Positions 137-27,645 are shown, numbered from the stretch's first letter. The stretch is 64,000 nucleotides of DNA from an uncultured Planctomycetota bacterium (GCA_963752285.1 CAVVXN010000002.1:64001-128000); one strand, 5' to 3'. Notes: a model not told the origin generated them from the sequence alone. Translations and numbers: made by a program.

Positions 137-268
137 CGACCGTTCCCGTCCCCGACCGCCTGGTCGCGTCCGCCGGCGCCCACGCGCTGGTTGCCCAACG
201 TCAACCCCATTTTCTGTCGCGTCGCCCTTGAGCACAGCAGCACCGACCGCGTCGAAAACCGCCAGCAG

Positions 269-2053
269 ATGCACATCGTGATCGCCGGTCACGTCGATCA
301 CGGCAAGAGCACGGTGATCGGTCGGCTGCTCGCCGACACGGGCTCGCTGCCCGAGGGGAAGCTCGAGCAGGTGCAGGAGCGCGTGCCAGCGGAACAGCAA
401 GCCGTTCGAGTACGCGTTCCTGCTGGACGCGCTGAAGGACGAGCAGGCCCAGGGCATCACGATCGACGCCGCGCGCGTGTTCTTCAAGACGCCGAAGCGC
501 GAGTACCTGATCATCGACGCGCCGGGCCACATCGAGTTCCTGAAGAACATGGTCACGGGCGCGAGCCACGCCGAGGCGGCGCTGCTGGTCATCGACGCGA
601 AGGAAGGCGTCCAGGAGAACTCCCGCCGCCACGGCTACATGCTCTCGATGCTCGGGATCTCGCAGATCGCGGTCCTCGTGAACAAGATGGACCTCGTGGG
701 CTACGACCGAGCGGTCTTCGAGCGGATCCGGGCCGAGTACGGCGCGTTCCTCGCGGAGATCGACGTCCGCCCGCAGGCCTTCCTCCCGCTCTCGGGCGAT
801 GGCGGGCGACAACGTCGCGAACGGGAAGGGCCGGCTCACCTGGTTCGACGGCCCGAACGTGCTCGAGGTCTTGGACGGCTTCGAGGAGGCCCCGCCGCCC
901 GTGGGCCGGCCGTTCCGCATGCCCGTGCAGGACGTCTACAAGTTCACGAACGCCGGCGACGACCGCCGGATCGTGGCGGGGACGGTCGAGACGGGCCGCC
1001 TTCGGCCCGGCGACGAGGTCGTCTTCTATCCCTCCGGGAAGCGGAGCCGCGTCCGCTCGATCGAGAGCTTCGCCCACGACGGCGTCGAGCGGGCCGAGGC
1101 GGGCGAGGCCACGGGGTTCACCCTCACCGAGCAGATCTACGTGACGCGCGGCGAGCTCGCCGGGAAGGAGGGCGAGGTCCGCCCGGACGTCAGCACGAGG
1201 CTTCGCGCGAGCCTCTTCTGGCTCGGGCGCGAGCCGATGGTGGTGGGGAAGGAGTACGGCCTCCGCCTCGGGACCGTGAAGGTGCCCATGCGCCTCGAGT
1301 CGATCGAACGCGTCCTCGACGCTTCGAGCCTCGAGCGAAGACGAGACGAAGCAGCGGATCGACCGGCACGAGGTCGCGGAGGTCGTGCTCCGGACGCGGA
1401 GGCCGGTGGCGTTCGACAAGACCGACGTCCTCCCCCTGACCTCCCGGTTCGTGGTCGTGGACGACTACGACATCAAGGGCGGCGGGATCGTCCTGGAGGC
1501 GCTCGAGGACTCGCAGACGCGCGTGCGCGACCAGGTCTTCCTCCGCGAGAACCGCTGGGAGAAGAGCCTCGTCGGCGCCGAGCACCGCGCGGAGCGGTAC
1601 AACCAGAAGGCGACCCTCCTCCTCGTGACGGGTCCCGCCCGGAGCCCCCGGAAGGAGATCGCGAAGGCCCTGGAGCGTCGCCTCTTCGAGGAGGGGAAGC
1701 TCGTCTACTTCCTCGCCTTCGGAAGCGTCCGCTACGGCGTCGATGCCGACATCACCCGGAGCGACGCGCCCCGGTCGGAGCCCGAGCTGATGCGGCGGCT
1801 GGGCGAGGTCGCCCACATCCTGGTCGATGCCGGCCTGATCCTGGTCGTGAGCGCGCAGGCGCTCTCGACCGAGGACCTCGAGGTCTTCAAGACGACCGTG
1901 GACCCGGAGCGGATCCTCGTCGCCTGGGCGGGCGAGCCGGGGCCCGAGGGCCTGCCCGTCGATCTCGACCTGGGGGCGGCCCCCGAGGCCGAGGCCGTGG
2001 ACCGGCTGAAGACGCTCCTCCAGGAGCGAGGCGCGATCTTCCGGCCGTGGTAG
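269..2053 (+). CDS. cysNC: sulfate adenylyltransferase subunit 1 fused to an APS-kinase-like domain (frameshifts near 385, 790, 1345)
   Basis: [19 protein letters not shown] and NKMD GTPase motifs, [11 protein letters not shown], and a C-terminal CysC-like domain are spread over ORFs 191-1144, 477-1439, 799-2184 and 1385-2053. Confidence 0.85.
1985..2051 (+). repeat. direct repeat, copy 1 (3' end of cysNC)
   Basis: 67 bp with one mismatch to 4885-4951; weaker similarity extends upstream to about 1911. Confidence 0.9.
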
Positions 2054-12458: not shown

Positions 12459-15400
12459 ATGTGCGGAATCGTCGCCATCCTGAGCCGGGCCCCGACCCGA
12501 CCGCCCCCCGACGCCGGGGTCGTGGCCCACGAGGTCTCGCGGGCCGCCGAGGCCCTCCTGGAGGGCCCGCTCGAGGCGGGGCGCCTCGCGTCGCCGATCG
12601 AGGCGATCGAGCGGGCCGGCCTCTCCCTTCGCGGCGGTGCGGGCTTCCTCGCGCTCCGCGGGGGAGCCGAGGTCCTCCGGGAACCCTCCCTCCGCCTCGA
12701 CCGGGCCGTCCAGGGCCTCGAGGAGCGCCTCGACCGGGAGGCGGGGACGCTCCCCGCCGCGACCGTCGAGGCCGTGAACGCGCTCCTCGTCCGCGCGAAG
12801 GACCAGGCCTTCCGGCTCGGCCGCGACCGGCTGGGCAACGTCTCGAAGGTCAAGGCCCTGGGGCCGGAGGCGAAGGAGGTCGCGCACCTCCGTGTCCTCT
12901 ACGACCTGAATCTCGCGTTGAACGCGCTCGACCGCCTCGAGGTCCGGGGCCGTGACTCCGCGGGGATCCACCTCCTCGTCCGAGGCGCCTCCGCCGCGCT
13001 GCCCCCGAACCTCGAGGACGAGCGCCGGCGGCGCGAGGCGATCACCGACTTCAAGAGCGACGCGGTCCGGCTCGCCCACGACCCCGCCAGGCGCCCCGTG
13101 TGGTCGTTCGTGTGGAAGGTCGCCGCCGAGGTGGGGGAGCTCGGCGACAACGTCCGCGCGCTCCGGGCGAAGATCGCGAAGGACCGGCTGCTCCACACGA
13201 TCCTCTCCCAGCCCGGCGTCGAAGCCGACGTCCTCGCGCACACCCGGTGGGCGAGCGTCGGGGTGGTGAGCGAGGAGAACGCCCACCCCCTGAACCAGGA
13301 GCAGGCCGTTTTGACCCCGCTCCCGTACGCCGTCGCCGCCCTGAACGGCGACGTGGACAACTTCGCGAAGCTGATCCAGGAGGAGGAGCTCCGGCTCGCT
13401 CCCGCCATCACGACGGACGCGAAGGTGATCCCGTCCCTCACGGCGACGCTCATGGCGCGCGGCGAGGGGGCGAGCGAGGCCTTCCGGAGGGCCGTTCGGC
13501 GCATGGACGGCTCCGTGGCGATCGCGTGCCAGACGGCCGCGGCGCCCGGGCGGCTCCTCCTCGCTCTCCGGGGCAGCGGCCAGGCGCTCTACGTGGGGCT
13601 CGCCGAGGACGCCTTCATCGTCGCGTCCGAGCCGTACGGGATCGTCGAGGAGACGGCCTCGTACGTCCGCCTCGACGGCGAGACGCCGGCCGCTTCCGAC
13701 CGTCCCGAGAGTCGCGGGCAGGTGATGATCCTGGACGCGGAGCAGCGCCGGGACGCTCGACGGCATGACGCGTCTCGCCTACGACGGGAACGCGCTCGCG
13801 CTCTCGTCGGGCGACGTACAGAGCGTGGACATCACGACCCGCGACGTCGATCGCGGTCCCCACCGCCACTTCCTTCGAAAGGAGATCCAGGAGGCGCCCG
13901 ACTCCGTCCGAAAGACCCTCCGCGGCCGCCTCGTCGAGAACGAGAAGCGCCTCGAGGTGCGGCTCGGCGAGGACGTGTTGCCGGAGCGGATCGCCTCGCG
14001 CTGCCGGGCGGGGAAGATCCGGCGGATCCTCGTGATCGGTCAGGGGACCGCGGCGGTGGCCGGCCGCGGCGTGGCCGGGCTGCTTCGCTCCGCGCTCGGG
14101 GACGCGGTCGAGGTCGAAGCCATGCCGGCGACCGAGCTCTCGGGATTCCACCTCGCGCCCGACATGTCGGCCGACCTGATCGTCGCGATCAGCCAGTCGG
14201 GCACCACGACCGACACGAACCGGACCGTGGACCTGCTCCGCGCGCGCGGCGCCTCGGTCCTCGCGATCGTGAACCGCCGGCAGAGCGACTTGACGGAGCG
14301 GGCCGACGGCGTCCTCTACACGTCCGACGGCCGCGACGTGGAGATGTCGGTCGCCTCGACGAAGGCCTTCTACAGCCAGATCGCGGCGGGCGCGCTGCTC
14401 GGCGTGGCGCTCGCCGAGGCCTTCGGAACGCCGGACGAAGCGCAGAGCCAACGGCTCCTCCGGGCCCTCCAGGACCTGCCTTCGTCCATGCGCGAGGTGC
14501 TCGCGGTGGAGGGGAAGGTCGGGGAGGCCGCGCGGGCCACGGCGCCCTACCGGCGGCACTGGGCGCTCGTCGGGAACGGCCCGAACGCCGTCGCGGCCGC
14601 CGAGATCCGGATCAAGCTCTCCGAGCTCTGCTACAAGTCGATCGCCTGCGACCAGACCGAAGACAAGAAGCACATCGACCTCTCGAGCGAGCCGCTGATC
14701 CTCGTCTGCGCGGCCGGCGTGGCGGGGGGGAACCAGATCGACGTCCAGAAGGAGGTCGAGATCTTCAGCGGCGCACAAGGCGTGTCCGGTCGTGATCGCG
14801 ACGACGCGGCAGCGGTCCGTGGCGCAGCGCCGCCTTCGTGATCGAGGTGCCCGACGCGGGTCCGGACCTGACCTTCGTGCTGACCACCATGGCGGGCCAC
14901 CTCTTTGGCTACCACGCGGCGCTCTCGATCGACGCGCTCGCGCTTCCGCTTCGCGAGGTGCGCGGGATCGTGGAGAGCACGGTCGCGTCCTCGAACGGTC
15001 ATCCCCCGCTGGAGCGGATCCGGCGAAGACTCCTCCCGTCCTCCCGCCAGTTCTCCAGGGACCTCGCGTCGGGCCGCTACGACGGCGCCCTCGACGCCCG
15101 CGACGCCTCGCGCCTCTCCCTCGCCTTCCGCTACGCGGGCGGCGTCGTGCCGCTCGAGTACTTCGCCGACGACTTCGGTCGTCCCGGGACGCCCGACGCG
15201 GCCCTGGAGGAGCTCGTCGGCTCGCTCACGTCGGGCATCGAGAGCCTCACGCGGCCGATCGACGCGATCAAGCACCAGGCCAAGACCGTGACCGTCGGCA
15301 TCAGCCGGACCGACGAGGCCCTCCTCCAGGTCCCGCTCGTCCGGGCCGTCCTCGCGGCGGGGACCTCGCTCGGGCGCCTCGCGTACCCGGACCTCGGTGT

Positions 15401-15887: not shown

Positions 15888-16294
15888 GTTTTCTGCGTTC
15901 GAGTGCATGGCGGCAGCGGCTCCCGGCCGTAGCGCGGGTCCTCCTCGTCGTCGCGGTCGTGTTCACGACCTACATGGCGCTCTCGCCCCGCGCGGGGCGA
16001 ATGGTCGCCTCGTTGAACGACAAGGTCCTCCATGCGCTCGCCTTCCTGACCCTCTCCCTCCTTACCGACCACGCCTTCCCCTCGCGGCGGTTCAACTGGG
16101 TCCCGATGACGCTGATCCTCTCGTACGGCGCCGCGATCGAGGTCGTGCAGCGCTTCGTCCCCGCGCGTACGTCGTCCTGGAAGGACCTCGTGGCGGACGT
16201 GATCGGGATCGCCCTCTACTGGCTGATGGCCCCGAGGATCCGAGACCTCTCGGGCCTCGCCCCCGCGCCGTCCGCCCCGCCGCCCGAGGGGTAG
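15884..16294 (+). CDS. VanZ family membrane protein
   Basis: DKVLHALAF, IEVVQRFVPAR and DLVADVIG motifs; GTGA overlap with the upstream stop. Confidence 0.85.
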   Translation: MSFLRSSAWRQRLPAVARVLLVVAVVFTTYMALSPRAGRMVASLNDKVLHALAFLTLSLLTDHAFPSRRFNWVPMTLILSYGAAIEVVQRFVPARTSSWKDLVADVIGIALYWLMAPRIRDLSGLAPAPSAPPPEG

Positions 16295-16431
16295 GCCTCG
16301 GGCGCGGGAGAGGCGTACGCCTCGCCCCCCGCCTTCGTCGGGTGCGGGCGCCCCCGTTGCGTGCTCGAGGGCGGAACCCTAGACTTCGCGGCCGCTGCGA
16401 TCGAGTAGATCTACAGGAGTCACCGTCCAAG

Positions 16432-17439
16432 ATGGAGCAGGGGTCGCCCTATCCGCCCGTTTCGGTGGTCATCACCGTCTACGAGCGGATGGCGTACCTC
16501 GCCGATGCGCTCGATTCGGTCCTGGGGCAGGACTACGCGGGCGTCACCGAGGTCATCGTCGTGGACGACGGATCTTCGACGGACGTGGCCCTGCGCTTTC
16601 GTGACCGATACCCGAGCGTGCGCTGGCTCCGGCAGCCGAACCTCGGCGTGTCCGCAGCGCGGCAGGCCGGCACCCAGGTGGCGTCGCACGACCTGATCGC
16701 CTACCTCGACGACGACGATCTCTGGCACCCGGAGAAGCTCCGGCGTCAGGTCGATTTCCTCGCGCGCCATCCGGAGCTCGGGCTCTCGTACACCGACTTC
16801 GGTGGATCGGGCGAGCTGGATCGCCTGCACGGTGGGCTCTTCGCCGCGAAGAAGCTGCTGGCGTCCACCCCCGCAACCCGCGATTCCGGGTCGGACCCCG
16901 GCTTCGTGTTCCCACGGGACGCGCTCATCGACTTCACGATGCGGGTCCTGCCGCTCTCGCCGTGCACGCTGATGATCCGTGCCGGCACGCTTCGGTCGCT
17001 GGGAGGCTGGGATGCCCGCGTGGGGAACTTCGCCGACTGCCACGACTTCCTCCTCCGGGCGAATCACGAGCACGAGGTGGGTTACGTCGCGCTTCCGCTC
17101 ACGGGCGTTCGGCGGGGGCACGAGGTCCATCTGACCGTCGATGCGGACATGACCCGCTACTGGGAGTGTCTCGGCCTCCTCCGGGCGCTGGATCGCTACG
17201 ATCCCCGCCTCGCGGAGCGGGTCCGCCCCGGGCTGGAGGGCCTGTTCGAGCGAACCGCCGGGCGGCTCCGGCGGGCGGGACGCCATGCCCGCGCGGCCAA
17301 GCTCTATTGGACGCTCACCCGGGCCTACGGGTGGAGGCCGAAGCGGTTCGCACAACTGGCGCTCTCCGCCGGCTTGGCGCTCGCCAGGGGACAGGGGCGG
17401 ACCCCTAGGACCAGGACCCGCAGCCGCGCGGCCGGCTGA
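16432..17439 (+). CDS. glycosyltransferase family 2
   Basis: VSVVIT, VVDDGSS, NLGVSAAR and YLDDDDLW motifs. Confidence 0.9.
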   Translation: MEQGSPYPPVSVVITVYERMAYLADALDSVLGQDYAGVTEVIVVDDGSSTDVALRFRDRYPSVRWLRQPNLGVSAARQAGTQVASHDLIAYLDDDDLWHPEKLRRQVDFLARHPELGLSYTDFGGSGELDRLHGGLFAAKKLLASTPATRDSGSDPGFVFPRDALIDFTMRVLPLSPCTLMIRAGTLRSLGGWDARVGNFADCHDFLLRANHEHEVGYVALPLTGVRRGHEVHLTVDADMTRYWECLGLLRALDRYDPRLAERVRPGLEGLFERTAGRLRRAGRHARAAKLYWTLTRAYGWRPKRFAQLALSAGLALARGQGRTPRTRTRSRAAG

Positions 17440-17600: not shown

Positions 17601-18020
17601 TGGCCCCGGGCGGGGGCGGTGTCGGTCGGCGGGGCGCAGAGGTGCCGCCCCGGGCAACCATGGTCCGCGCGGCCGCCCGGCTCGCCCCCTCGCCCGGGCC
17701 GCGCGCCAGAGGTCGCGGGCCGAGGGTCGCGATGTGGTCTGGGTCCCCGGATCGGCGCTTCGAGCCGTCGCGTCGCGTCGAGAGCCAGTCTTGCCGGGTG
17801 AAGAGCAGCGCTCCTGCAGGCTGCGGCGGGCTTGACGTGGGAGGTCGCCCCGGAACCCGCCGGCCGTCGGGCGTCATGTCGTTCCCGGATCCCCGGGTTC
17901 CCAGCAAAAGAGAGCACGGCGCGGCCCATCCAAATCATGGCCGTGATGTTCGTACGCGCCCCTTTCGCCCCGTGGGCGGTCCGTTGGGCGCGGGAACACG
18001 CCGGCCTGGGAGGGAGTTCG

Positions 18021-18689
18021 ATGGGAGGGATGCGGCTCGCGATCTGCGCCGGGCTTTCCGGCCTGTCCCTGCTCGTTCTTGCCGCGGGAGCGCGGGCGGA
18101 CTCCTTGGCGGAGTCTGGTGACGCAGGTTCCTCCCTCGCGACCTCCGAAGCCGTGGGCGCAGGGATCGACTCCATTACGGGATCGCTTTCGGTCCTCGGC
18201 GACGTGGACATGTACGAGCTGAACCTGGACGCCGGGTTCTTCTTCGCCTCGACGGTCGGCGGCTCGTCCGTGGACACCCAGCTCTACCTCTTCGACAGCG
18301 CCGGCTACGGAGTCGTGGGCAACGACGATTACGACCCCTCGAACTCGGGCGGGCTGCAGTCCCGCATCGAGGCCACGCTCACGGCGGGCACCTACCACCT
18401 CGCCGTATGCGCGTACGGCTACGACCCGTTCAGCTCGGGCGGTGCGATCTTCCCCGACTCGGCCACGACCGGATCCGACCCGTTCTGGGCGCCGACCGGC
18501 GCCGGCGGGGGCGCGCCGCTTTCCTACTGGGCGGACGCGAACGGGGACCACAGCACCACGCAGACCGGTGCGTACACCATCTCCCTGACATCGACTCCGT
18601 CGCCGGTTCCCGAGCCCGGGACGATGGCGTTGCTGGCGGTGGGCCTCGCCGGTTTGGGCCTTCGTGGGTGCCGAGCCCGCGTCGCCTGA
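18021..18689 (+). CDS. PEP-CTERM surface protein (DVUA0089/PPC-like domain)
   Basis: Signal peptide, DTQLYLFD...NDD, LTAGTYHLAV and VPEPGTMALL tail. Confidence 0.85.
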   Translation: MGGMRLAICAGLSGLSLLVLAAGARADSLAESGDAGSSLATSEAVGAGIDSITGSLSVLGDVDMYELNLDAGFFFASTVGGSSVDTQLYLFDSAGYGVVGNDDYDPSNSGGLQSRIEATLTAGTYHLAVCAYGYDPFSSGGAIFPDSATTGSDPFWAPTGAGGGAPLSYWADANGDHSTTQTGAYTISLTSTPSPVPEPGTMALLAVGLAGLGLRGCRARVA

Positions 18690-19027: not shown

Positions 19028-19459
19028 ATGGCCAGGACGACAAGCATCACCGAGGCGATCGTGAGTCTGATCCAGACCGTGGAGGACGTGGTCCGGCGGT
19101 TCGGCGACAGGCTCGAGCGAGGCGACGGATCCGCGGAGGCCGCCGGAGAGGCTTCGATGCCTCGCCGCGCCCGGCTTCGGGCTCCGCGCGTCCCGGCAAC
19201 GGAGGGCGATGCGCCGGCGTCCGGCGCCCGGGCGTCCCGCCCCCCGAAGGCCCAGGCGAAGTCGAAGAAGCTCCGCTCGGCTCTCAAGAGTCACTGGGCG
19301 AACATGACGCCCGAGGAGCGCGCCGCCCGCATCGCGAAGATGCAGGCCGGCCGCACGAAGGGGAAGCCGCGGGCGGCCGCCGCCAAGCGCCGAAAGGCGA
19401 GCCCGAGGCGCACGCGACCTGCCGCGGCGCCGACGGGCCAGGAGATCGGGAACGGTTGA
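19028..19459 (+). CDS. small basic K/R/A-rich protein, paralogue 1
   Basis: GGAGG RBS. Shares its N-terminus and KLRSALKxHWANMTPEERAARIAKM with 37861-38220. Confidence 0.75.
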   Translation: MARTTSITEAIVSLIQTVEDVVRRFGDRLERGDGSAEAAGEASMPRRARLRAPRVPATEGDAPASGARASRPPKAQAKSKKLRSALKSHWANMTPEERAARIAKMQAGRTKGKPRAAAAKRRKASPRRTRPAAAPTGQEIGNG

Positions 19460-19846
19460 CCGGGCGTTTCCGGCGGCGGCGCGGAGGCCTCCGAACGGCC
19501 CGCACCACCACGTGCGCACTCGCTTTCGCGTGATCCGTCTCGAGCCGCGTTGAGGGTGTGCCTGGGGCGGCCGGAGGGGGGCCCGGGCGGGGCGCCGTCA
19601 CTCGGCGTGCGCCCCGCCTCGGGTCCCTCGGCCGTCGGTTCGGCCGCCACACGCGAGCCGCCATGCGTCGTTCAGCGAACGGTCGCTCTGCGTCGGCCAA
19701 GTACCCGCCTCCGGCTCGAAACGGTGGCCCGTCCTGGACTCGACCGGAGGGCCGCCAAGACCGGCGAAACGGGTCGGGAGTCGATGTTCGCGCATGGCCG
19801 CGTGCGCGGCCGGTTGCCGTCCGCGTGTCACACGCGGTCGAGCGTG

Positions 19847-20835
19847 CTACGCGAGCTTGCGCCGGCGGCGGCGCCGCACCGCGAGCCCCCCCAGCGCCAG
19901 GCCGGTGAGGGCGAGGGTGGCAGGCTCGGGGACGGGGACGGGAGATCCCAGGAGCGCGTACCCGGTGAGACCGCCGGCAGCGAGGGCGGTGTAGCCCGTG
20001 CCGGTGGGAGCGTTGCTGACCTGGCCGTAGTAGTCATAGCCCCACGCGAGGATGCTGCCGTCGGCGGCCAGGGCGTACCCGTTGTAGTAGCCGCCGGCGA
20101 TGGCGGTGTAGCCCGTGCCGGTGGGAGCGTTGCTGACCTGGCCGTAGTAGTCATAGCCCCACGCGACGATGCTGCCGTCGGCGGCCAGGGCGTACCCGGT
20201 GTAGTAGCCGCCGGCGATGGCGGTGTAGCCCGTGCCGGTGGGAGCGTTGCTGACCGCGCCGTAGTAGTCATAGCCCCACGCGACGATGCTGCCGTCGGCG
20301 GCCAGGGCGTACCCGTTGTAGTCGCCGCCGGCGATGGCGGTGTAGCCCGTGCCGGTGGGAGCGTTGCTGACCGCGCCGTAGAAGTCATAGCCCCACGCGA
20401 GGATGCTGCCGTCGGCGGCCAGGGCGTACCCGTTGTAGCCGCCGCCGGCGATGGCGGTGTAGCCCGTGCCGGTGGGAGCGTTGCTGACCTGGCCGTAGTC
20501 GTCATAGCCCCACGCGAGGATGCTGCCGTCGGCGGCCAGGGCGTACCCGTCGTAGCCGCCGCCGGCGATGGCGGTGTAGCCCGTGCCGGTGGGAGCGTTG
20601 CTGACCTGGCCGTAGCCGTCATAGCCCCACGCGAGGATGCTGCCGTCGGCGGCCAGGGCGTACCCGGTGTAGAGCCGCCGGCGATGGCGGTGTAGCCCGT
20701 GCCGGTGGGAGCGTTGCTGACCTGGCCTTGGCCGTCATAGCCCCACGCCGTGATGCCATCCGCCCGCGCCGGTGCCGCTAGACCGACGGCCCCCAGGACT
20801 ACCACGAGCAACCCGATTCCCTTGGTCAGACGCAT
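19847..20835 (-). CDS. PEP-CTERM protein with seven 39-aa RCC1-like repeats, copy A (-1 frameshift near 20672)
   Basis: Signal peptide MRLTKGIGLL...ARA, 7 x 117-bp units (WGYDxxGxVSNAPTGTGYTAIAGGxYxGYALAADGSI[LV]A), and VPEPATLALTGLALGGLAVRRRRRRKLA*. Confidence 0.85.
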
Positions 20836-21217
20836 GTCCATCCTCCAGCTTCCGAAGCGGCGTCGGCCCTCCACCCTTCCGAGGTGCGGTGCCCTCCGCC
20901 TCCAAGAATCCAATGGCGGTTTCCGGCGCAAAGCGGACACGAATGGAGGGTCCTTGGTCCCAGCGCGGCGCGCTCGACCCCTCGCCAATCGGCGCCGCGG
21001 CCGGCCGACCGCCGCGCGGGCCGCGGCAGGCGCCGCGCCCTGGACCTCCACCAGGCTGCCTGGCTGGGCGCGTCGGCGTCAGTCGCCAGCGGAGCATCGA
21101 GGTCGAGCTGGGGAAGCCGCGAGCCTCGCTGCACCTGGTCCTGCGCACACTGGTGGCGCCCGGCATCGAGTTGTGGACCGAGGAGCCCCCGCCGAGTGCG
21201 TCGCACGGATCCGTACC

Positions 21218-21446
21218 CGTGACCCGACTCGAGATCGGAGATCGTGAGGCTGTCGGCGCTCCGCCAGTCCTTCGCATTCGTGAGCCCGCTCGTGGCGTGG
21301 AAGACCGGAGCGCCGCCGTCCTGGTAGGCCGCGCCGACCACGTTGTCGCCCGTGAAGTCGAAGGTGAGGGCGATCCCATCCGCGCGGGCCGAGCCGGCAC
21401 AGGCGATCCACAGCGCGGCACCGATCAAGACACTTACAAGCCTCAT
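21218..21446 (-). pseudogene. 5' fragment of the PEP-CTERM gene at 24644-25435, truncated by deletion
   Basis: Matches MRLVSVLIG...ISDLE of the intact gene and then joins the hipB remnant. Confidence 0.8.
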
Positions 21447-21904
21447 TCCGACTTACTCGGGCGCGACCCTGCCGCCTCTTGAACTTAATGGGCGACATCG
21501 GCGATCGCTTTGGGGACCGTTGCGAGCGACGCGTCCCGGCCCCCTCGGACTCTGCCACCACGCCCCCGCTTCTCGCGCCGGGGCCCGGTTGGCACCCAAC
21601 TCGGCGGCCAAGCGTCTACCTCGGGCCACCTTTGTCGCTCTCGGTGGATGAGCGCTGTCGATCGCACCTCGCCTCGGCCTCCGCGCCGCTCTCCTCCGCC
21701 GTCTCAGTGCGCCACGGCGAGTCGCTGTCCACCCCCAGGGCCGCCAGGGACTGCCCGTGCCCGTTGCCGGGGCCCCCGGGTCGCCCGCGTGGGGTCGCAT
21801 GCGCCCGCGCGCGAATTCCCCTCCCCTCGCCAGGTCCAGGCCGAAGCTGCGCGAGACCGATCCCCCAGGTCCCGGCCGATCGCGACGGCCGCAGGAACCG
21901 ACCG

Positions 21905-21994
21905 GCGGAGGTGTACCGCCTCCTTCATGAGCCCGACCGCGCCGTGGCCGCGGCGAAGCGGGCCTTCGCCGGCGAGGTCCCCCCGCGGGGGGCC
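21905..21994 (+). repeat. displaced ~90-bp fragment of the kinase TPR region
   Basis: Similar to about 30489-30578 (AEVYRLLHEPDRAVAAAKRA[F/V]AGEVPPRG). Confidence 0.8.
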
Positions 21995-22347
21995 CGCGAC
22001 TTCGCTACCGCGCGATCTGGATCGACCGCCCCGCCTGAGCGCCGGCGGAACCCGTACCGCGACACCGCCGCGGGGGTCGGTCGAGCGGGGCGCGTTCGGG
22101 TCGAGGTGGGCGAGGCCGGCGCGGGCGAGGTAGTCGGCGAGCGGCTCGAGGCCCATCTCGGCGCGCCGTCCGTCGAATCCGGGCCCGCCCCCCGCGCGAC
22201 AGCGCCCCGCGGCACGCGTCGGCCTACCCCCGTACGGTGCCGAACCCATTCAGAACAGCGAGGAGCCTTTCCTGTCTTGTGCCTCGCGTGCTGCGTCGGG
22301 CGGCGTGGCGTTCGTGACCGCGTCGGTGCCCGGAGCGGTCCCTCCGT

Positions 22348-22737
22348 GTGGGTGTCGCGGGATGCGCCGTGGGCCGGGGCCCGACGCCGGCCTCGCCGGC
22401 GCCCGCCGGGGTCTACCGGCCGCGGCACCCGGAGCGCACGCCCCTCTACCGGGTGATCGAGGCGCGCTTCGAGGAGTACCGGCGCGTGTATGCCGACCGC
22501 TTCGAGCCCGAGGCCGGGCCCTGGCGAACGGAGGTGGAGGAGGCGGTGCACGCGTTCCTGGACTGAGGGCGGCTCCACGGGGGTTTCGCCCGGATCCGGT
22601 GCCCGAGGTGCGGAGCCGAGCACCTGCTGGCCTTCTCGTGCCGGACGCGCAACCTCTGTCCGTCGTGCCAGTCCAAGCGGTCGGCCCTCTTCGGGGAGTG
22701 GCTGGTGGATGCGGTGCTGCTCGACGTGCCTCACCGC
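22348..22737 (+). pseudogene. IS91/ISCR-family transposase N-terminal zinc-binding domain remnant
   Basis: YRPRHPERTPLY...FLD*GRLHGGFARIRCPRCGAEHLLAFSCRTRNLCPSC...LLDVPHR. It has an in-frame TGA at 22564 and is cut off where duplication copy B begins. Confidence 0.8.
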
Positions 22738-23023
22738 CCTGGGGCGGCCGGAGGGGGGCCCGGGCGGGGCGCCGTCACTCGGCGTGCGCCCCGCCTCGGG
22801 TCCCTCGGCCGTCGGTTCGGCCGCCACACGCGAGCCGCCATGCGTCGTTCAGCGAACGGTCGCTCTGCGTCGGCCAAGTACCCGCCTCCGGCTCGAAACG
22901 GTGGCCCGTCCTGGACTCGACCGAAGGGCCGCCAAGACCGGCAAAACGGGTCGGGAGTCGATGTTCGCGCATGGCCGCGTGCGCGGCCGGTTGCCGTCCG
23001 CGTGTCACACGCGGTCGAGCGTG

Positions 23024-24014
23024 CTACGCGAGCTTGCGCCGGCGGCGGCGCCGCACCGCGAGCCCCCCCAGCGCCAGGCCGGTGAGGGCGAGGGTGGCAG
23101 GCTCGGGGACGGGGACGGGAGAACCCAGGAGCGCGTACCCGGTGAAACCGCCGGCAGCGAGGGCGGTGTAGCCCGTGCCGGTGGGAGCGTTGCTGACCTG
23201 GCCGTAGCCGTCATAGCCCCACGCGAGGATGCTGCCGTCGGCGGCCAGGGCGTACCCGTTGTAGCAGCCGCCGGCGATGGCGGTGTAGCCCGTGCCGGTG
23301 GGAGCGTTGCTGACCTGGCCGTAGTAGTCATAGCCCCACGCGACGATGCTGCCGTCGGCGGCCAGGGCGTACCCGTTGTAGTAGCCGCCGGCGATGGCGG
23401 TGTAGCCCGTGCCGGTGGGAGCGTTGCTGACCTCGCCGTAGAAGTCATAGCCCCACGCGACGATGCTGCCGTCGGCGGCCAGGGCGTACCCGTTGTAGTC
23501 GCCGCCGGCGATGGCGGTGTAGCCCGTGCCGGTGGGAGCGTTGCTGACCTGGCCGTAGCCGTCATAGCCCCACGCGAGGATGCTGCCGTCGGCGGCCAGG
23601 GCGTACCCGTTGTAGCCGCCGCCGGCGAGGGCGGTGTAGCCCGTGCCGGTGGGAGCGTTGCTGACCTGGCCGTAGCGTCAGTAGCCCCACGCGAGGATGC
23701 TGCCGTCGGCGGCCAGGGCGTACCCGGTGTAGTTGCCGCCGGCGATGGCGGTGTAGCCCGTGCCGGTGGGAGCGTTGCTGACCTGGCCTTGGCCGTCATA
23801 GCCCCACGCGAGGATGCTGCCGTCGGCGGCCAGGGCGTACCCGTTGTAGGTAGCCGCCGGCGATGGCGGTGTAGCCCGTGCCGGTGGGAGCGTTGCTGAC
23901 CTCGCCGTAGGAGTCATAGCCCCACGCCGTGATGCCATCCGCCCGCGCCGGTGCCGCTAGACCGACGGCCCCCAGGACTACCACGAGCAACCCGATTCCC
24001 TTGGTCAGACGCAT
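23024..24014 (-). CDS. PEP-CTERM protein with seven 39-aa RCC1-like repeats, copy B (+1 frameshift near 23850; compensating indels near 23678)
   Basis: Same signal peptide, 7 x 117-bp units and VPEP tail as copy A. Confidence 0.85.
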
Positions 24015-24199
24015 GTCCATCCTCCAGCTTCCGAAGCGGCGTCGGCCCTCCACCCTTCCGAGGTGCGGTGCCCTCCGCCTCCAAGAATCCAATGGCGGTT
24101 TCCGGCGCAAAGCGGACACGAATGGAGGGTCCTTGGTCCCAGCGCGGCGCGCTCGACCCCTCGCCAATCGGCGCCGCGGCCGGCCGACCGCCGCGCGGG

Positions 24200-24463
24200 C
24201 CGCGGCAGGCGCCGCGCCCTGGACCTCCACCAGGCTGCCTGGCTGGGCGCGTCGGCGTCAGTCGCCAGCGGAGCATCGAGGTCGAGCTGGGGAAGCCGCG
24301 AGCCTCGCTGCACCTGGTCCTGCGCACACTGGAGGCGCTCGGCATCGAGTTGTGGACCGAGGAGCCCCCGCCGAGTGCGTCGCACGGATCCGTACCGGGG
24401 GCCTCCGTCGATCTCGGTGGCGTCGTGGACGCGCACACGACACCCCGCGGGGGGCGGCCGTGA
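24200..24463 (+). pseudogene. HipB/XRE-type HTH antitoxin remnant
   Basis: LAGRVGVSRQRSIEVELGKPRASLHLVLRTLEALGIEL resembles an XRE HTH; the 5' part is degraded. Confidence 0.6.
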
Positions 24464-24545
24464 TCTCCAAGGAACTCGTCGCCGTCCTGGGGGGGACGGA
24501 GGTCGGTCGCCTGACATGCGACCGCAACGGTCGGTCGCGGTACGC
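24460..24545 (+). pseudogene. HipA N-terminal fragment
   Basis: GTGA overlap with the HTH gene stop; MISKELVAVLGGTEVGRLTCDRNGR, then truncated. Confidence 0.5.
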
Positions 24546-24643
24546 CGCCCACGGTTGCCGGAGGCGGGCAAAAGCGCGGACACGATCACCCATCCGTGGA
24601 GATGGGGTGTCGGTCGTCCCTGCGGCCGTAGCGCCGAATTCGC

Positions 24644-25435
24644 CTAGACGGCCTGCGCGCGGCGCCTCCGCGTGAGAAGGCCGAGGCAGCCCAGCCCCGT
24701 GACCAGCAGCAACAGCGTGGCGGGCTCCGGAACGGGGGTGGTGACCGTGAGCCGGATCCAGAGCATCTGGTCCTGTGTGGTCGTGAAATTGTCACCTGCC
24801 CACAGCCACTGGGCGGAATCGCTGATCGAGCCGAGGCCCGTGCCCCCGTTCCAGGGAGCGCTGTTCTTCCCGCCGTAGCTCGTCACGTCGCTCCAGGAGA
24901 TGTCGTTGAAGTCCCATCCAGTCGGCAGGCTGTTCGAGTCGAGCCAGCCGGTGGTGGGCGTCAACGTGACCCCCTCGTCGCCATCAATGCCGCCGCTCCC
25001 GTCGATGTCGTACGAGAAGACGTTGCTGTAGGCCCAGTGGCCGACGTCCCCGCTCTCGTATTCCTTTGTGACGACCGAGAGCCCGCCGCCCGAGACCTCG
25101 GCGAGGAACGCCGCCGGGTTGCCGGAGCCTGCGGCACCCTCGTCCGGATCGCTGTACGGGTCCCCCGACGTGAGGCCGTTTCGGACGAGGAAGATGAACT
25201 GGTACTCGTGACCCCACTCGAGATCGGAGATCGTGAGGCTGTCGGCGCTCCGCCAGTCCTTCGCATTCGTGAGCCCGCTCGTGGCGTGGAAGACCGGAGC
25301 GCCGCCGTCCTGGTAAGCCGCGCCGACCACGTTGTCGCCCGTGAAGTCGAAGGTGAGGGCGATCCCATCCGCGCGGGCCGAGCCGGCGCAGGCGATCCAC
25401 AGCGCGGCACCGATCAAGACACTTACAAGCCTCAT
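24644..25435 (-). CDS. PEP-CTERM surface protein
   Basis: Signal peptide, GNPAAFLAEV, AQWLW and VPEPATLLLL-RRRR tail. Confidence 0.85.
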   Translation of the reverse strand: MRLVSVLIGAALWIACAGSARADGIALTFDFTGDNVVGAAYQDGGAPVFHATSGLTNAKDWRSADSLTISDLEWGHEYQFIFLVRNGLTSGDPYSDPDEGAAGSGNPAAFLAEVSGGGLSVVTKEYESGDVGHWAYSNVFSYDIDGSGGIDGDEGVTLTPTTGWLDSNSLPTGWDFNDISWSDVTSYGGKNSAPWNGGTGLGSISDSAQWLWAGDNFTTTQDQMLWIRLTVTTPVPEPATLLLLVTGLGCLGLLTRRRRAQAV

Positions 25436-25837
25436 TCCGACCTCCTCGGGCGCGACCCTGCCGCCTCTTGAACTTAATGGGCGACATCGGCGATCGCTTT
25501 GGGGACCGTTGCGAGCGACGCGTCCCGGCCCCCTCGGACTCTGCCACCACGCCCCCGCTTCTCGCGCCGGGGCCCGGTTGGCACCCAACTCGGCGGCCAA
25601 GCGTCTACCTCGGGCCACCTTTGTCGCTCTCGGTGGATGAGCGCTGTCGATCGCACCTCGCCTGGGCCTCCGCGCCGCTCTCCTCCGCCGTCTCAGTGCG
25701 CCACGGCGAGTCGCTGCCCACCCCCAGGGCCGCCAGGGACTGCCCGTGCCCGTTGCCGGGGCCCCCGGGTCGCCCGCGTGGGGTCGCATGCGCCCGCGCG
25801 CGAATTCCCCTCCCCTCGCCAGGTCCAGGCCGAAGAA

Positions 25838-26044: not shown

Positions 26045-27412
26045 CTACTCGGCCGTCAGGCGGGCGACGAACCAGACCCAGTCGGTCGTCGTGTCGTCCC
26101 GCGCGGCGGTGTGGGACAGGCCGCCTACGTACGTCTCTCCCGCGGCGTCCACGAGGCAGCCGAAGGCCTGGTTGTAGGGGAGGACCTGGAGGGGGCCGGC
26201 GACGCCGTCCTGGCCGAACGTGTCGTCGAGCTCGCCCGTGTCGGTGAGCCTCACGGCGTAGGCGTCCGCGATCGTGCCGCCCGCGGCGTAGTTCCACGCG
26301 TAGCCCGCGACCACGATCTCGCCCGTGGGCGCGAGCGCGAGCGAAGCGTAGGCGTCGAAGCGATCGTAGCCGTCGATCGCGACCGCCACCTCGCCGTCGG
26401 TCCCGAAGGTGTCGTCCGCGGCCAACGTGCCCGAATCGACCGTGAACCGTCGGACGAGCATGTTGCCGCCGTTCGTCTGGGTGAGGTCCGAGACCAGGAT
26501 CCGGTCGTCGTCGTCCACCGCCACCGCGCCGGGCACCAGGCCGGCCCGCGTCAGCTCGTCGAGGGGGGATCCGTCCGCCGAGAGGAGGATCAGGCGCGAG
26601 AGCTGCGTCGTCTGCGTTCCGCCGGTGTGGGCGGCCACGACGATGCTCCCGTCCGCGAGCACGGCCAGCGCGTTTCGGTTGGCGCGGTCGTCGTTGGCCG
26701 CTCCGCCGGTCTTCTGGTTGTTGGGGTCGTAGACCCAGTAGCCGTTGGTGGCGAAGGACGTGTCCAGGGCGCCGTCGCTATCGAGGCGGGCCACGAAGAT
26801 CTCGGGGTAGCTCGCGTAGTTCTTCCCCGGCGGAGGCGCGCCCGCCTGCCCGGCGGCGAGGATCTTCCCGTCGGAGAGCACGAGGAGGGAGTTGACCCGC
26901 GCGTTGAGGGATCCCGGCACGTCGAGGTGCGCGACGCCGTCCGTCCCGAAGGACGTGTCGAGGCTGCCCGCGGCCGTGAGCCGGGCCACCGCGCCGACCG
27001 ACTTCGTCGTGACCGTCGGGTGCCTCTTCTTCCCCGTGACGGTCGTGACGTTCGCGCACCCGCCCGCGAGGATCCCGTCGCCCGACGTGACCGCCAGCGC
27101 CTGGAGATTCGCCTGGTCGGCCGAGGTGAAGACGTTCGCGACGCCGCCGCTTCCGAAGCCGAGGTCCGCCGCGCCGTTCGCGTCGAAGCGCCGAAGCTCC
27201 CAGGGGCCGTTGATCGGGGACCCGCCGCCGACCACGCCGCCGTCCGACTGCCCGACCATCTGGACCATCGGGGACAGCCACGCGAGGTCCCCCGTCATCG
27301 CGAAGCCCCCGATCCCGTAGTCCTGGTCGAGGTCACCCGCCGCCGCCCAGGCCGTCCCCGCCGCCAGCGCGAGAAAGAGGATCGCCCGGCTCCATCCCCC
27401 TCGTCCCCGCAT
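26045..27412 (-). CDS. secreted delta-60 repeat (beta-propeller) protein
   Basis: Signal peptide and repeated RLxxxGxLDxxFGxxG and LxDGKILAAG motifs. Confidence 0.85.
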   Translation of the reverse strand: MRGRGGWSRAILFLALAAGTAWAAAGDLDQDYGIGGFAMTGDLAWLSPMVQMVGQSDGGVVGGGSPINGPWELRRFDANGAADLGFGSGGVANVFTSADQANLQALAVTSGDGILAGGCANVTTVTGKKRHPTVTTKSVGAVARLTAAGSLDTSFGTDGVAHLDVPGSLNARVNSLLVLSDGKILAAGQAGAPPPGKNYASYPEIFVARLDSDGALDTSFATNGYWVYDPNNQKTGGAANDDRANRNALAVLADGSIVVAAHTGGTQTTQLSRLILLSADGSPLDELTRAGLVPGAVAVDDDDRILVSDLTQTNGGNMLVRRFTVDSGTLAADDTFGTDGEVAVAIDGYDRFDAYASLALAPTGEIVVAGYAWNYAAGGTIADAYAVRLTDTGELDDTFGQDGVAGPLQVLPYNQAFGCLVDAAGETYVGGLSHTAARDDTTTDWVWFVARLTAE

Positions 27413-27645
27413 CCGACCCGCGCGCCTCTGGCGCCCTCCCGATCCCAGCCGTACGTCGTCCATGTCCGTGTCTCCAGAAGGGGCGGGCCGACCCCGCCCC
27501 CTCGAGATTGGCGTTTCCCGCGAAAACCCGCCGCGGCGGGTTTCGGGCCGTGTTCGCCAAGGGAAGGGAGCGGGCCCGAGGTCCCCTTGTGGAGCGTGGG
27601 GGGACAGCCCTAGCATCCGGGGCGGTTCCCGGGGAAGCGGGGGGC

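Follow-up and report, generated by a model that had tools for sequence, protein, structure and literature searches.

Two paralogous genes, A and B, lie on the minus strand of a 64,000-nt stretch of DNA from an uncultured Planctomycetota bacterium (genome G000, contig C2, positions 64001-128000; the assembly comprises 4.64 Mb in five contigs and has 73% G+C). This whole stretch is called the window, and positions are counted from its first letter unless they are preceded by C2. Both genes have the same layout: a signal peptide, a tandem array of 117-nt units and a PEP-CTERM tail. Gene A (19847-20841; three-frame translation, Pfam) specifies a seven-bladed propeller of the BLIP-II/RCC1-like type and contains one frame break as assembled. 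Gene B (23024-24020; translation, alignment, Pfam) is a paralogue with the same architecture and is broken in frame at two places as assembled. The signal peptide of A (20761-20841, minus strand; MDMRLTKGIGLLVVVLGAVGLAAPARA) ends in ...APARA before DGITAWG, the cleavage site being read from the sequence; its DNA recurs identically in B at 23940-24020.

The array of A (19973-20748, minus strand) was delimited by Tandem Repeats Finder as 6.6 copies of 117 nt with 96% matches, its units starting at 20745, 20629, 20512, 20395, 20278, 20161 and 20044. The array of B (23150-23927, minus strand) was delimited in the same way as 6.6 copies of 117 nt with 94% matches, its units starting at 23924, 23806, 23689, 23572, 23455, 23338 and 23221. 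When the arrays are cut at the TGGGGCTA anchor, each gene is found to contain six full units, about half of a seventh and a separate, diverged N-terminal strand (GITAWG). The partial seventh unit and this separate strand explain why seven blades are encoded by only 6.6 homogeneous DNA units; an initial annotation of the window, which had counted seven 117-bp units per gene, holds for the blades and not for the DNA units, of which six are complete. The seventh unit tracks the consensus over its first 60 nt or so; beyond this it diverges, silent sites included, and silent divergence is found in the edge units in general.

Units were compared over the 12 complete ones (six per gene), with three frame-broken codon groups masked with N. 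Only 12 of the 117 columns vary, all inside seven codons (5, 6, 8, 21, 25, 27 and 38). No silent variant is present: each alternative replaces the residue. Five codons, 15 columns in all, account for ten of the 12 variable columns (hypergeometric P about 2e-9, for codons picked after seeing the data). Codons 5, 6 and 8 are located in the inter-blade loop that follows WGYD, codons 25 and 27 in the apical beta-turn GG-x-Y-x-G; these five loop codons carry Tyr, Gly, Asp, Phe, Ser, Asn, Cys, Thr, Gln, Ala and Glu variants. Five variants are each found in one unit only (codon 5: TCC, GAC; codon 25: AAC, TGC; codon 27: GAC), whereas the loop GGC-CAA-GGC-CAG is found in both A1 and B2, i.e. at shifted places. 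The initial annotation had described DNA that is invariant, silent sites included, except at fixed codons, and the unit alignment bears this out: all 12 variable columns are replacement columns, every codon alternative listed there is present, and A and B carry different combinations of them. Median blade identity in protein is 0.91 in A and 0.92 in B; among 77 scorable homologues the next best value is 0.83 and the median 0.56.

The fold was predicted with AlphaFold2 (AF2) from the 274-residue open piece of A and an alignment of 41 homologues. The model is a propeller with three strands per 39 residues (mean predicted local distance difference test score, pLDDT, 92.9; predicted template modelling score, pTM, 0.85). 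Foldseek matches it best to BLIP-II chains (3qi0, 1jtd and 3qhy; E 2e-19 to 5e-18, TM-score 0.71-0.77, 32-37% identity), the superposition on 1jtd_B having a TM-score of 0.77 and a root-mean-square deviation of 2.2 over 257 columns; UVR8, HERC, CRINKLY4 and RCC1 propellers come after BLIP-II. A phmmer comparison with 1jtd_B gives an E-value of 1.9e-31. RCC1_2 (PF13540; cut-off 22 bits) is detected in six stretches of A (93.2 bits, E 5.6e-27; open piece 19850-20671) and in B (65.9 bits; open piece 23027-23677). The seven-bladed, RCC1-type propeller proposed earlier is thus recovered by the model and by both comparisons: A and B are predicted to be such propellers, and their closest solved relative is BLIP-II (35-37% identity).

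BLIP-II binds TEM-1 only via side chains of its apical beta-turns and inter-blade loops (bioRxiv 10.1101/2024.08.26.609822), and 22 contact residues are given in the passages of PMC10817188 considered here. These contacts were mapped by hand on the phmmer alignment to 1jtd_B (chain index + 38); the contact printed as Tyr19 was taken as Tyr191 from the alignment. The numbering is secure, since all 22 residue identities are reproduced. Codon 5 corresponds to Leu91, Tyr208 and Trp53 (the last in a loop two residues longer), codon 6 to Asp131, Asp170 and Phe209, and codon 25 to Tyr73, Asn112, Ile229 and Glu268. These three variable codons therefore take 10 of the 22 contacts. A further eight belong to two codons with a fixed Tyr in the loops of these variable codons: codon 3, within WGYD, corresponds to Gly49, Asp167 and Asp206, and codon 26 to Phe74, Trp152, Tyr191, Phe230 and Trp269. 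The remainder are Asn50 and Asn51 (an insertion in the WG..G loop of blade 1), Thr57 (codon 10, the Ser of VSN) and Asn304 (the Leu of GG-L-T-G in the partial seventh unit). Codons 8, 21, 27 and 38 match none of the listed contacts.

Family variability was scored on 392 blades of exactly 39 residues from homologues. The five most variable positions are, in this order, codons 25, 3, 5, 26 and 6. Judged by homology, the variable loops most likely correspond to the apical rim with which BLIP-II clamps beta-lactamase, and the residues there would then set the binding partner. The combinatorial ligand-binding face of the initial annotation is accordingly kept in part. It is supported for codons 5, 6 and 25 by the contacts listed for BLIP-II, is plausible for codons 8 and 27, and does not extend to codons 21 and 38, which belong to buried strands.

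Sorting of both products through a PEP-CTERM signal, as annotated earlier, is confirmed at the level of domain scores. The signal of A (19868-19936, minus strand; PF07589 at residues 246-268 of the 274-aa piece) consists of a PEP motif, a hydrophobic stretch and an Arg cluster; that of B lies at 23045-23113 (minus strand; Pfam, TIGR02595), and the tail of both proteins is PVPEPATLALTGLALGGLAVRRRRRRKLA. PF07589 (cut-off 20.7) scores 23.3 bits in A and 23.7 in B, TIGR02595 (cut-off 16) 28 and 28.4 bits; none of the named PEP-CTERM subfamilies of NCBIfam reaches its cut-off in either protein. An exosortase gene of the EpsH family (C2:37330-38076; PF09721, 169.3 bits; 627-codon open frame) is found on the same contig, about 46 kb from gene A and about 26.7 kb before the window start. 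Its product probably sorts the PEP-CTERM proteins encoded in this region. The products of A and B are probably secreted binders sorted by exosortase, and the tail together with this gene suggests that they are displayed on the surface.

A and B lie in a 3.18-kb segmental duplication. Copy 1 (about 19561-21689) contains gene A and its flanks; copy 2 (about 22738-25678) contains gene B, its flanks and an intact upstream PEP-CTERM gene (24644-25438). The flanks are 99% identical (10 differences in 1223 aligned positions, no indel), whereas units 1-6 of the two genes show 27 differences in 701 positions, all of them at variable codons or at the break in B unit 3. The sole large difference between the copies is an 810-nt deletion in copy 1 that truncates the upstream PEP-CTERM gene. 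This gene encodes 264 aa upstream of B (minus strand); in its counterpart upstream of A (20826-21446, minus strand) the 810-nt loss joins the first ~70 codons to downstream sequence. The downstream edge of the duplication reaches about 90 nt into two long minus-strand open reading frames (ORFs; 19291-19650 and 21925-22827), whose first 30 codons are common; these have no Pfam match and may not be genes.

Frame breaks occur in both genes and were not reported in the initial annotation. In A unit 1 (116 nt), codon 25 is reduced to 2 nt (20672-20673, minus strand); in B unit 1 (118 nt), it has 4 nt (23849-23852, minus strand), both being read from the unit alignment. In B unit 3, codons 3-5 read TAC TGA CGC (23675-23683, minus strand): a +1/-1 pair beside variable codon 5 creates an in-frame stop. 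With both frames broken, the genes as assembled encode no full propeller. The duplicated region thus shows four indel events, all at or beside variable codons, against none in the 1223 aligned flank positions. The window was also surveyed for frameshifts with stop-to-stop ORFs filtered by G+C at third codon positions (GC3); segmentation by GC3 phase alone was too crude. A cysN/cysC-like gene (254-2050, plus strand; EF-Tu-type GTPase domain, domain 2, APS kinase) is spread over four frames by three frameshifts, its Pfam matches running on from frame to frame. One of its breaks, around 795, resembles an extra G in a G run, and the gene reflects either a local consensus error or a pseudogene. Because it coexists with uninterrupted genes of 858-1596 codons, the indel problems of the assembly are local.

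The explanation favoured for A and B, with a probability of about 0.62, is a recent amplification or homogenisation of blades combined with selection for change on the binding face, in two tandemly duplicated binder genes. It retains the repeat homogenisation plus positive selection put forward initially and agrees with the uniform units and the replacement-only codons. The 117-nt unit would either have been amplified very recently or be homogenised by unequal exchange or gene conversion, with units recombining inside one gene and across A and B; under either view, the full units agree at all silent and structural positions. The loop variants would arise by ordinary point mutation and by exchange of parts of units, would be retained by selection for change, and would define the binding partner, a protein or a glycan. 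No retroelement would be involved.

Several observations agree with the individual steps. The variants found in a single unit only (codons 5, 25 and 27) point to point mutation. For the first loop, units of A and B are best matched with a one-unit offset (1.0 versus 2.1 differences per pair), whereas the second half of the units fits best in register. This offset and the recurring combinations are a hint of sub-unit exchange. At least 15 mutational steps are needed to account for the 12 variable columns; not one is silent, although silent sites make up 24% (P 0.016).

Other observations weigh against this explanation. The silent-site test is based on about 15 events, and the register shift on small numbers. 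The L/V pattern at codon 38 is identical in A and B, which argues against frequent shuffling of units since the duplication. Codons 21 (I/L) and 38 (L/V) lie within strands of the AF2 model and are conservative core swaps, and the variable codons 8 and 27 match no contact listed for BLIP-II. The modelled 274 residues do not include the N-terminal part of the first blade, about 30 mature residues being lost to the frame break. Finally, A and B are frame-broken in the assembly: the genes may be decaying, or the consensus may be wrong at the very codons that carry the argument.

This last point is the core of the alternative that survives best, although it is a doubtful one: the pattern would be an artefact of assembly (mis-registered reads or mixed strains in a near-identical array), or A and B would be genuine pseudogenes of a short-lived propeller. 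The breaks themselves may be consensus errors where mis-registered reads disagree, or real decay. Such a view draws on the clustering of the four indel events at or beside variable codons, on the split cysN/cysC-like gene of the same window, and on the disrupted repetitive propellers and assembly doubts noted in PMC9218822. Against it, the variants at the variable codons are all sensible codons, many of which recur in several units and in both genes, and random damage elsewhere in A or B is not seen. The long window genes without interruption (858 to 1596 codons) indicate that indel errors are not general. A search of sequence runs retrieved four soil-metagenome runs from one study, each with 0.05-0.08 of the sampled words, which yielded short contigs of low depth that give the repeats no useful coverage. 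One independent 147-nt contig from such a run (corresponding to 23279-23425) shows five differences, three of them in codons 5 and 27, and thus other variants at these codons; at a depth of 3.3 this is weak evidence.

It is unlikely that amplification was recent and nothing else occurred, the loop positions merely tolerating change by neutral drift with neither selection for diversity nor ongoing homogenisation. Highly repetitive RCC1/BLIPII propellers are common and are read as fresh amplifications in the passages of PMC9218822 considered here; moreover, the variable positions are the least conserved ones in the family, and the L/V pattern at codon 38 is kept between A and B. Under this reading silent sites would drift freely, and yet none of the at least 15 steps is silent. 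In several codons two positions have changed. Units 1-6 of A and B have diverged about five times as much as the coding and non-coding flanks, and only at variable codons.

A further alternative, which must be considered improbable, takes the breaks as the trace of variable codons that are heterogeneous among cells. A codon-targeted diversification that needs no reverse transcriptase would then be active on a surface propeller, through exchange of short patches, at very high frequency, between the 14 units or through local hypermutation. A retroelement could also drive it from a replicon missing from the assembly; the mixture would then have been met by the consensus caller.

The diversity-generating retroelement (DGR), or other template-driven retroelement acting in trans, that the initial annotation had offered as a second possibility is scarcely credible. 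Such an element would rewrite the units while mutating template adenines. The variable codons are mostly of the form NNC (any two nucleotides followed by C) and differ in their first two letters, the outcome expected from an AAC template, and repeated overwriting from one template would leave non-variable positions identical, silent ones included. The parts of a DGR are not found in the assembly: a search of the genome with RVT_1 (reverse transcriptase) gave no candidate, although, since the genome is only 89.35% complete, absence of the enzyme is not proven. A blastn search of the same assembly with the unit gave matches only at window positions 19953-20756 and 23130-23935, hence no further copy such as an A-rich non-coding template, and IMG/VR contains no exact match to the invariant 36-nt core of the unit. 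Fifteen of the 20 adenine columns of the unit are invariant in the 12 units, including AGC AAC in the conserved strand, which template copying with adenine mutagenesis could not produce; A is absent from four of the variable columns. The predicted fold, a propeller, is not the C-type-lectin/FGS fold described for DGR targets in the passages of PMC7159879 considered here, and the same positions are the most variable family-wide, in proteins whose blades are far less alike. Two other mechanisms were rejected: donor cassettes of the kind that underlies antigenic variation, none of which blastn detects elsewhere in the assembly, and phase variation by simple-sequence slippage, no simple repeat being present at the breaks.

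The propeller gene is accessory. A threshold of E <= 1e-10 yields a match in only 1 of 30 related genomes (53% identity) and none in the genome from the same genus, hence no orthologues suited to a codon test. The closest database match is 68% identical, and named matches are mostly metagenome-assembled genomes (MAGs) of Planctomycetota. The 29 loci from genome contigs and 29 from metagenome contigs provide no close allele series at the DNA level; where these 58 related loci contain arrays with a period of 108-117 nt, DNA matches range from 68 to 88%. Another very uniform repeat of the superfamily (L042:46-378; 144-nt array, 2.3 copies, 95% matches) is carried by a metagenome contig coding for a distant relative and adjoins a second array there, of 12 copies at 76%. 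P0066, P0078 and P0094, short PEP-CTERM propellers of three blades from Planctomycetaceae-type MAGs and metagenomes, have an identical signal-peptide core and PEP-CTERM tail, differ at the same loop positions, and contain half-units that recur elsewhere. As far as their sequences indicate, they resemble a comparable allele series from a different lineage; DNA was obtained for one related locus (L036).

A and B are located within a cluster of genes for secreted proteins. In addition to the unclassified PEP-CTERM gene upstream of B (24644-25438, minus strand), the neighbours include a PEP-CTERM protein of the PPC-domain/DVUA0089 family (17832-18689, plus strand) and a delta-60-repeat (DUF5122) propeller (26045-27616, minus strand). 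A GT2 glycosyltransferase gene (15907-17439) and a SIS-domain gene (13729-14838) are found upstream.

If selection for change is the right reading, such small propellers are natural, modular scaffolds for binders, and the two tandem copies are a snapshot of the re-tuning of specificity after a duplication. The apical loops that vary throughout the family point to recognition of changing partners, rather than to a housekeeping role, for BLIP-II-type proteins. Uniform repeats with few, fast-changing binding residues are a pattern already familiar in fungal immune receptors and in WD40 proteins of cyanobacteria; A and B extend it to a secreted, probably surface-anchored BLIP-II-like binder of an uncultured soil bacterium.

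Like BLIP-II of Streptomyces exfoliatus (PDB 1JTD, 3QHY, 3QI0), A and B encode secreted, seven-bladed propellers with three-stranded blades of about 40 residues, and their variable codons are in the two loops (inter-blade and apical beta-turn) that provide the ligand contacts listed for BLIP-II. They differ from it in their blades, which are 91-92% identical at the protein level, against well-diverged blades in BLIP-II; in the PEP-CTERM tail, which BLIP-II lacks; and in an apical face composed mainly of fixed and variable Tyr, Gly and Asp. The contact positions hold other residues in A and B. Binding of a beta-lactamase is not implied. With regard to PEP-CTERM/exosortase substrates, the C-terminal PEP motif, hydrophobic helix and basic cluster and the clustering of PEP-CTERM genes are shared, but the passenger domain is here a BLIP-II-like propeller. 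A literature search for PEP-CTERM with RCC1 or BLIP-II returned no paper on such proteins among the matches listed.

In the survey of Pereira and Lupas (2022, PMC9218822), 10% of the highly repetitive propellers belong to the RCC1/BLIPII group; frameshifts or stops frequently interrupt highly repetitive propellers according to these authors, who also note that the assembly of such genes is sometimes open to doubt. A and B share with this group near-identical blades (read as recent amplification), a distinct first strand, a mostly bacterial distribution and frequent disruption by frameshifts or stops. The threshold of the survey was a median blade identity of 60%, whereas A and B reach 91-92%; the passages of it considered here describe neither variable apical codons nor PEP-CTERM anchoring for the group. 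DGR targets (Mtd of phage BPP-1, TvpA) are comparable in that variation affects a few, mostly NNC codons of a ligand-binding surface, according to the descriptions considered here. Their variation is limited to one C-terminal variable region, unlike that of A and B, which is distributed over 14 tandem units. A literature search for DGR with beta-propeller and tandem repeat found no paper on propeller targets, as judged by title.

A parallel in pattern is provided by the WD40 repeats of fungal NOD-like receptors (NLRs; het-d, het-e, NWD family), for which concerted evolution and positive selection were proposed (Paoletti et al. 2007, PMC1805685). In the parts of that paper considered here, identity between repeats of one gene or of different paralogues can reach 100%, a few codons under positive selection are paired around a conserved residue on the interaction surface of the propeller, and the arrays are genetically fragile. 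A and B resemble these repeats in the uniformity of their units, in pairs of replacement-only codons around a conserved residue, placed by homology on the interaction face, and in their fragility. The fungal propellers are cytoplasmic and eukaryotic with four-stranded blades, whereas A and B are bacterial, secreted and BLIP-II-like. Ten genes with about 70 units make up the fungal family, whereas A and B together have 14 units. Concerted evolution was established by phylogeny for the fungal repeats, whereas for A and B it is inferred; repeat-induced point mutation (RIP) may add mutations in fungi and has no known counterpart here. The phenomenon itself is a known one, of which A and B are a very clean and extreme case in a secreted BLIP-II-like binder: they exemplify a known route to the evolution of binders, and not a new mutagenesis system.

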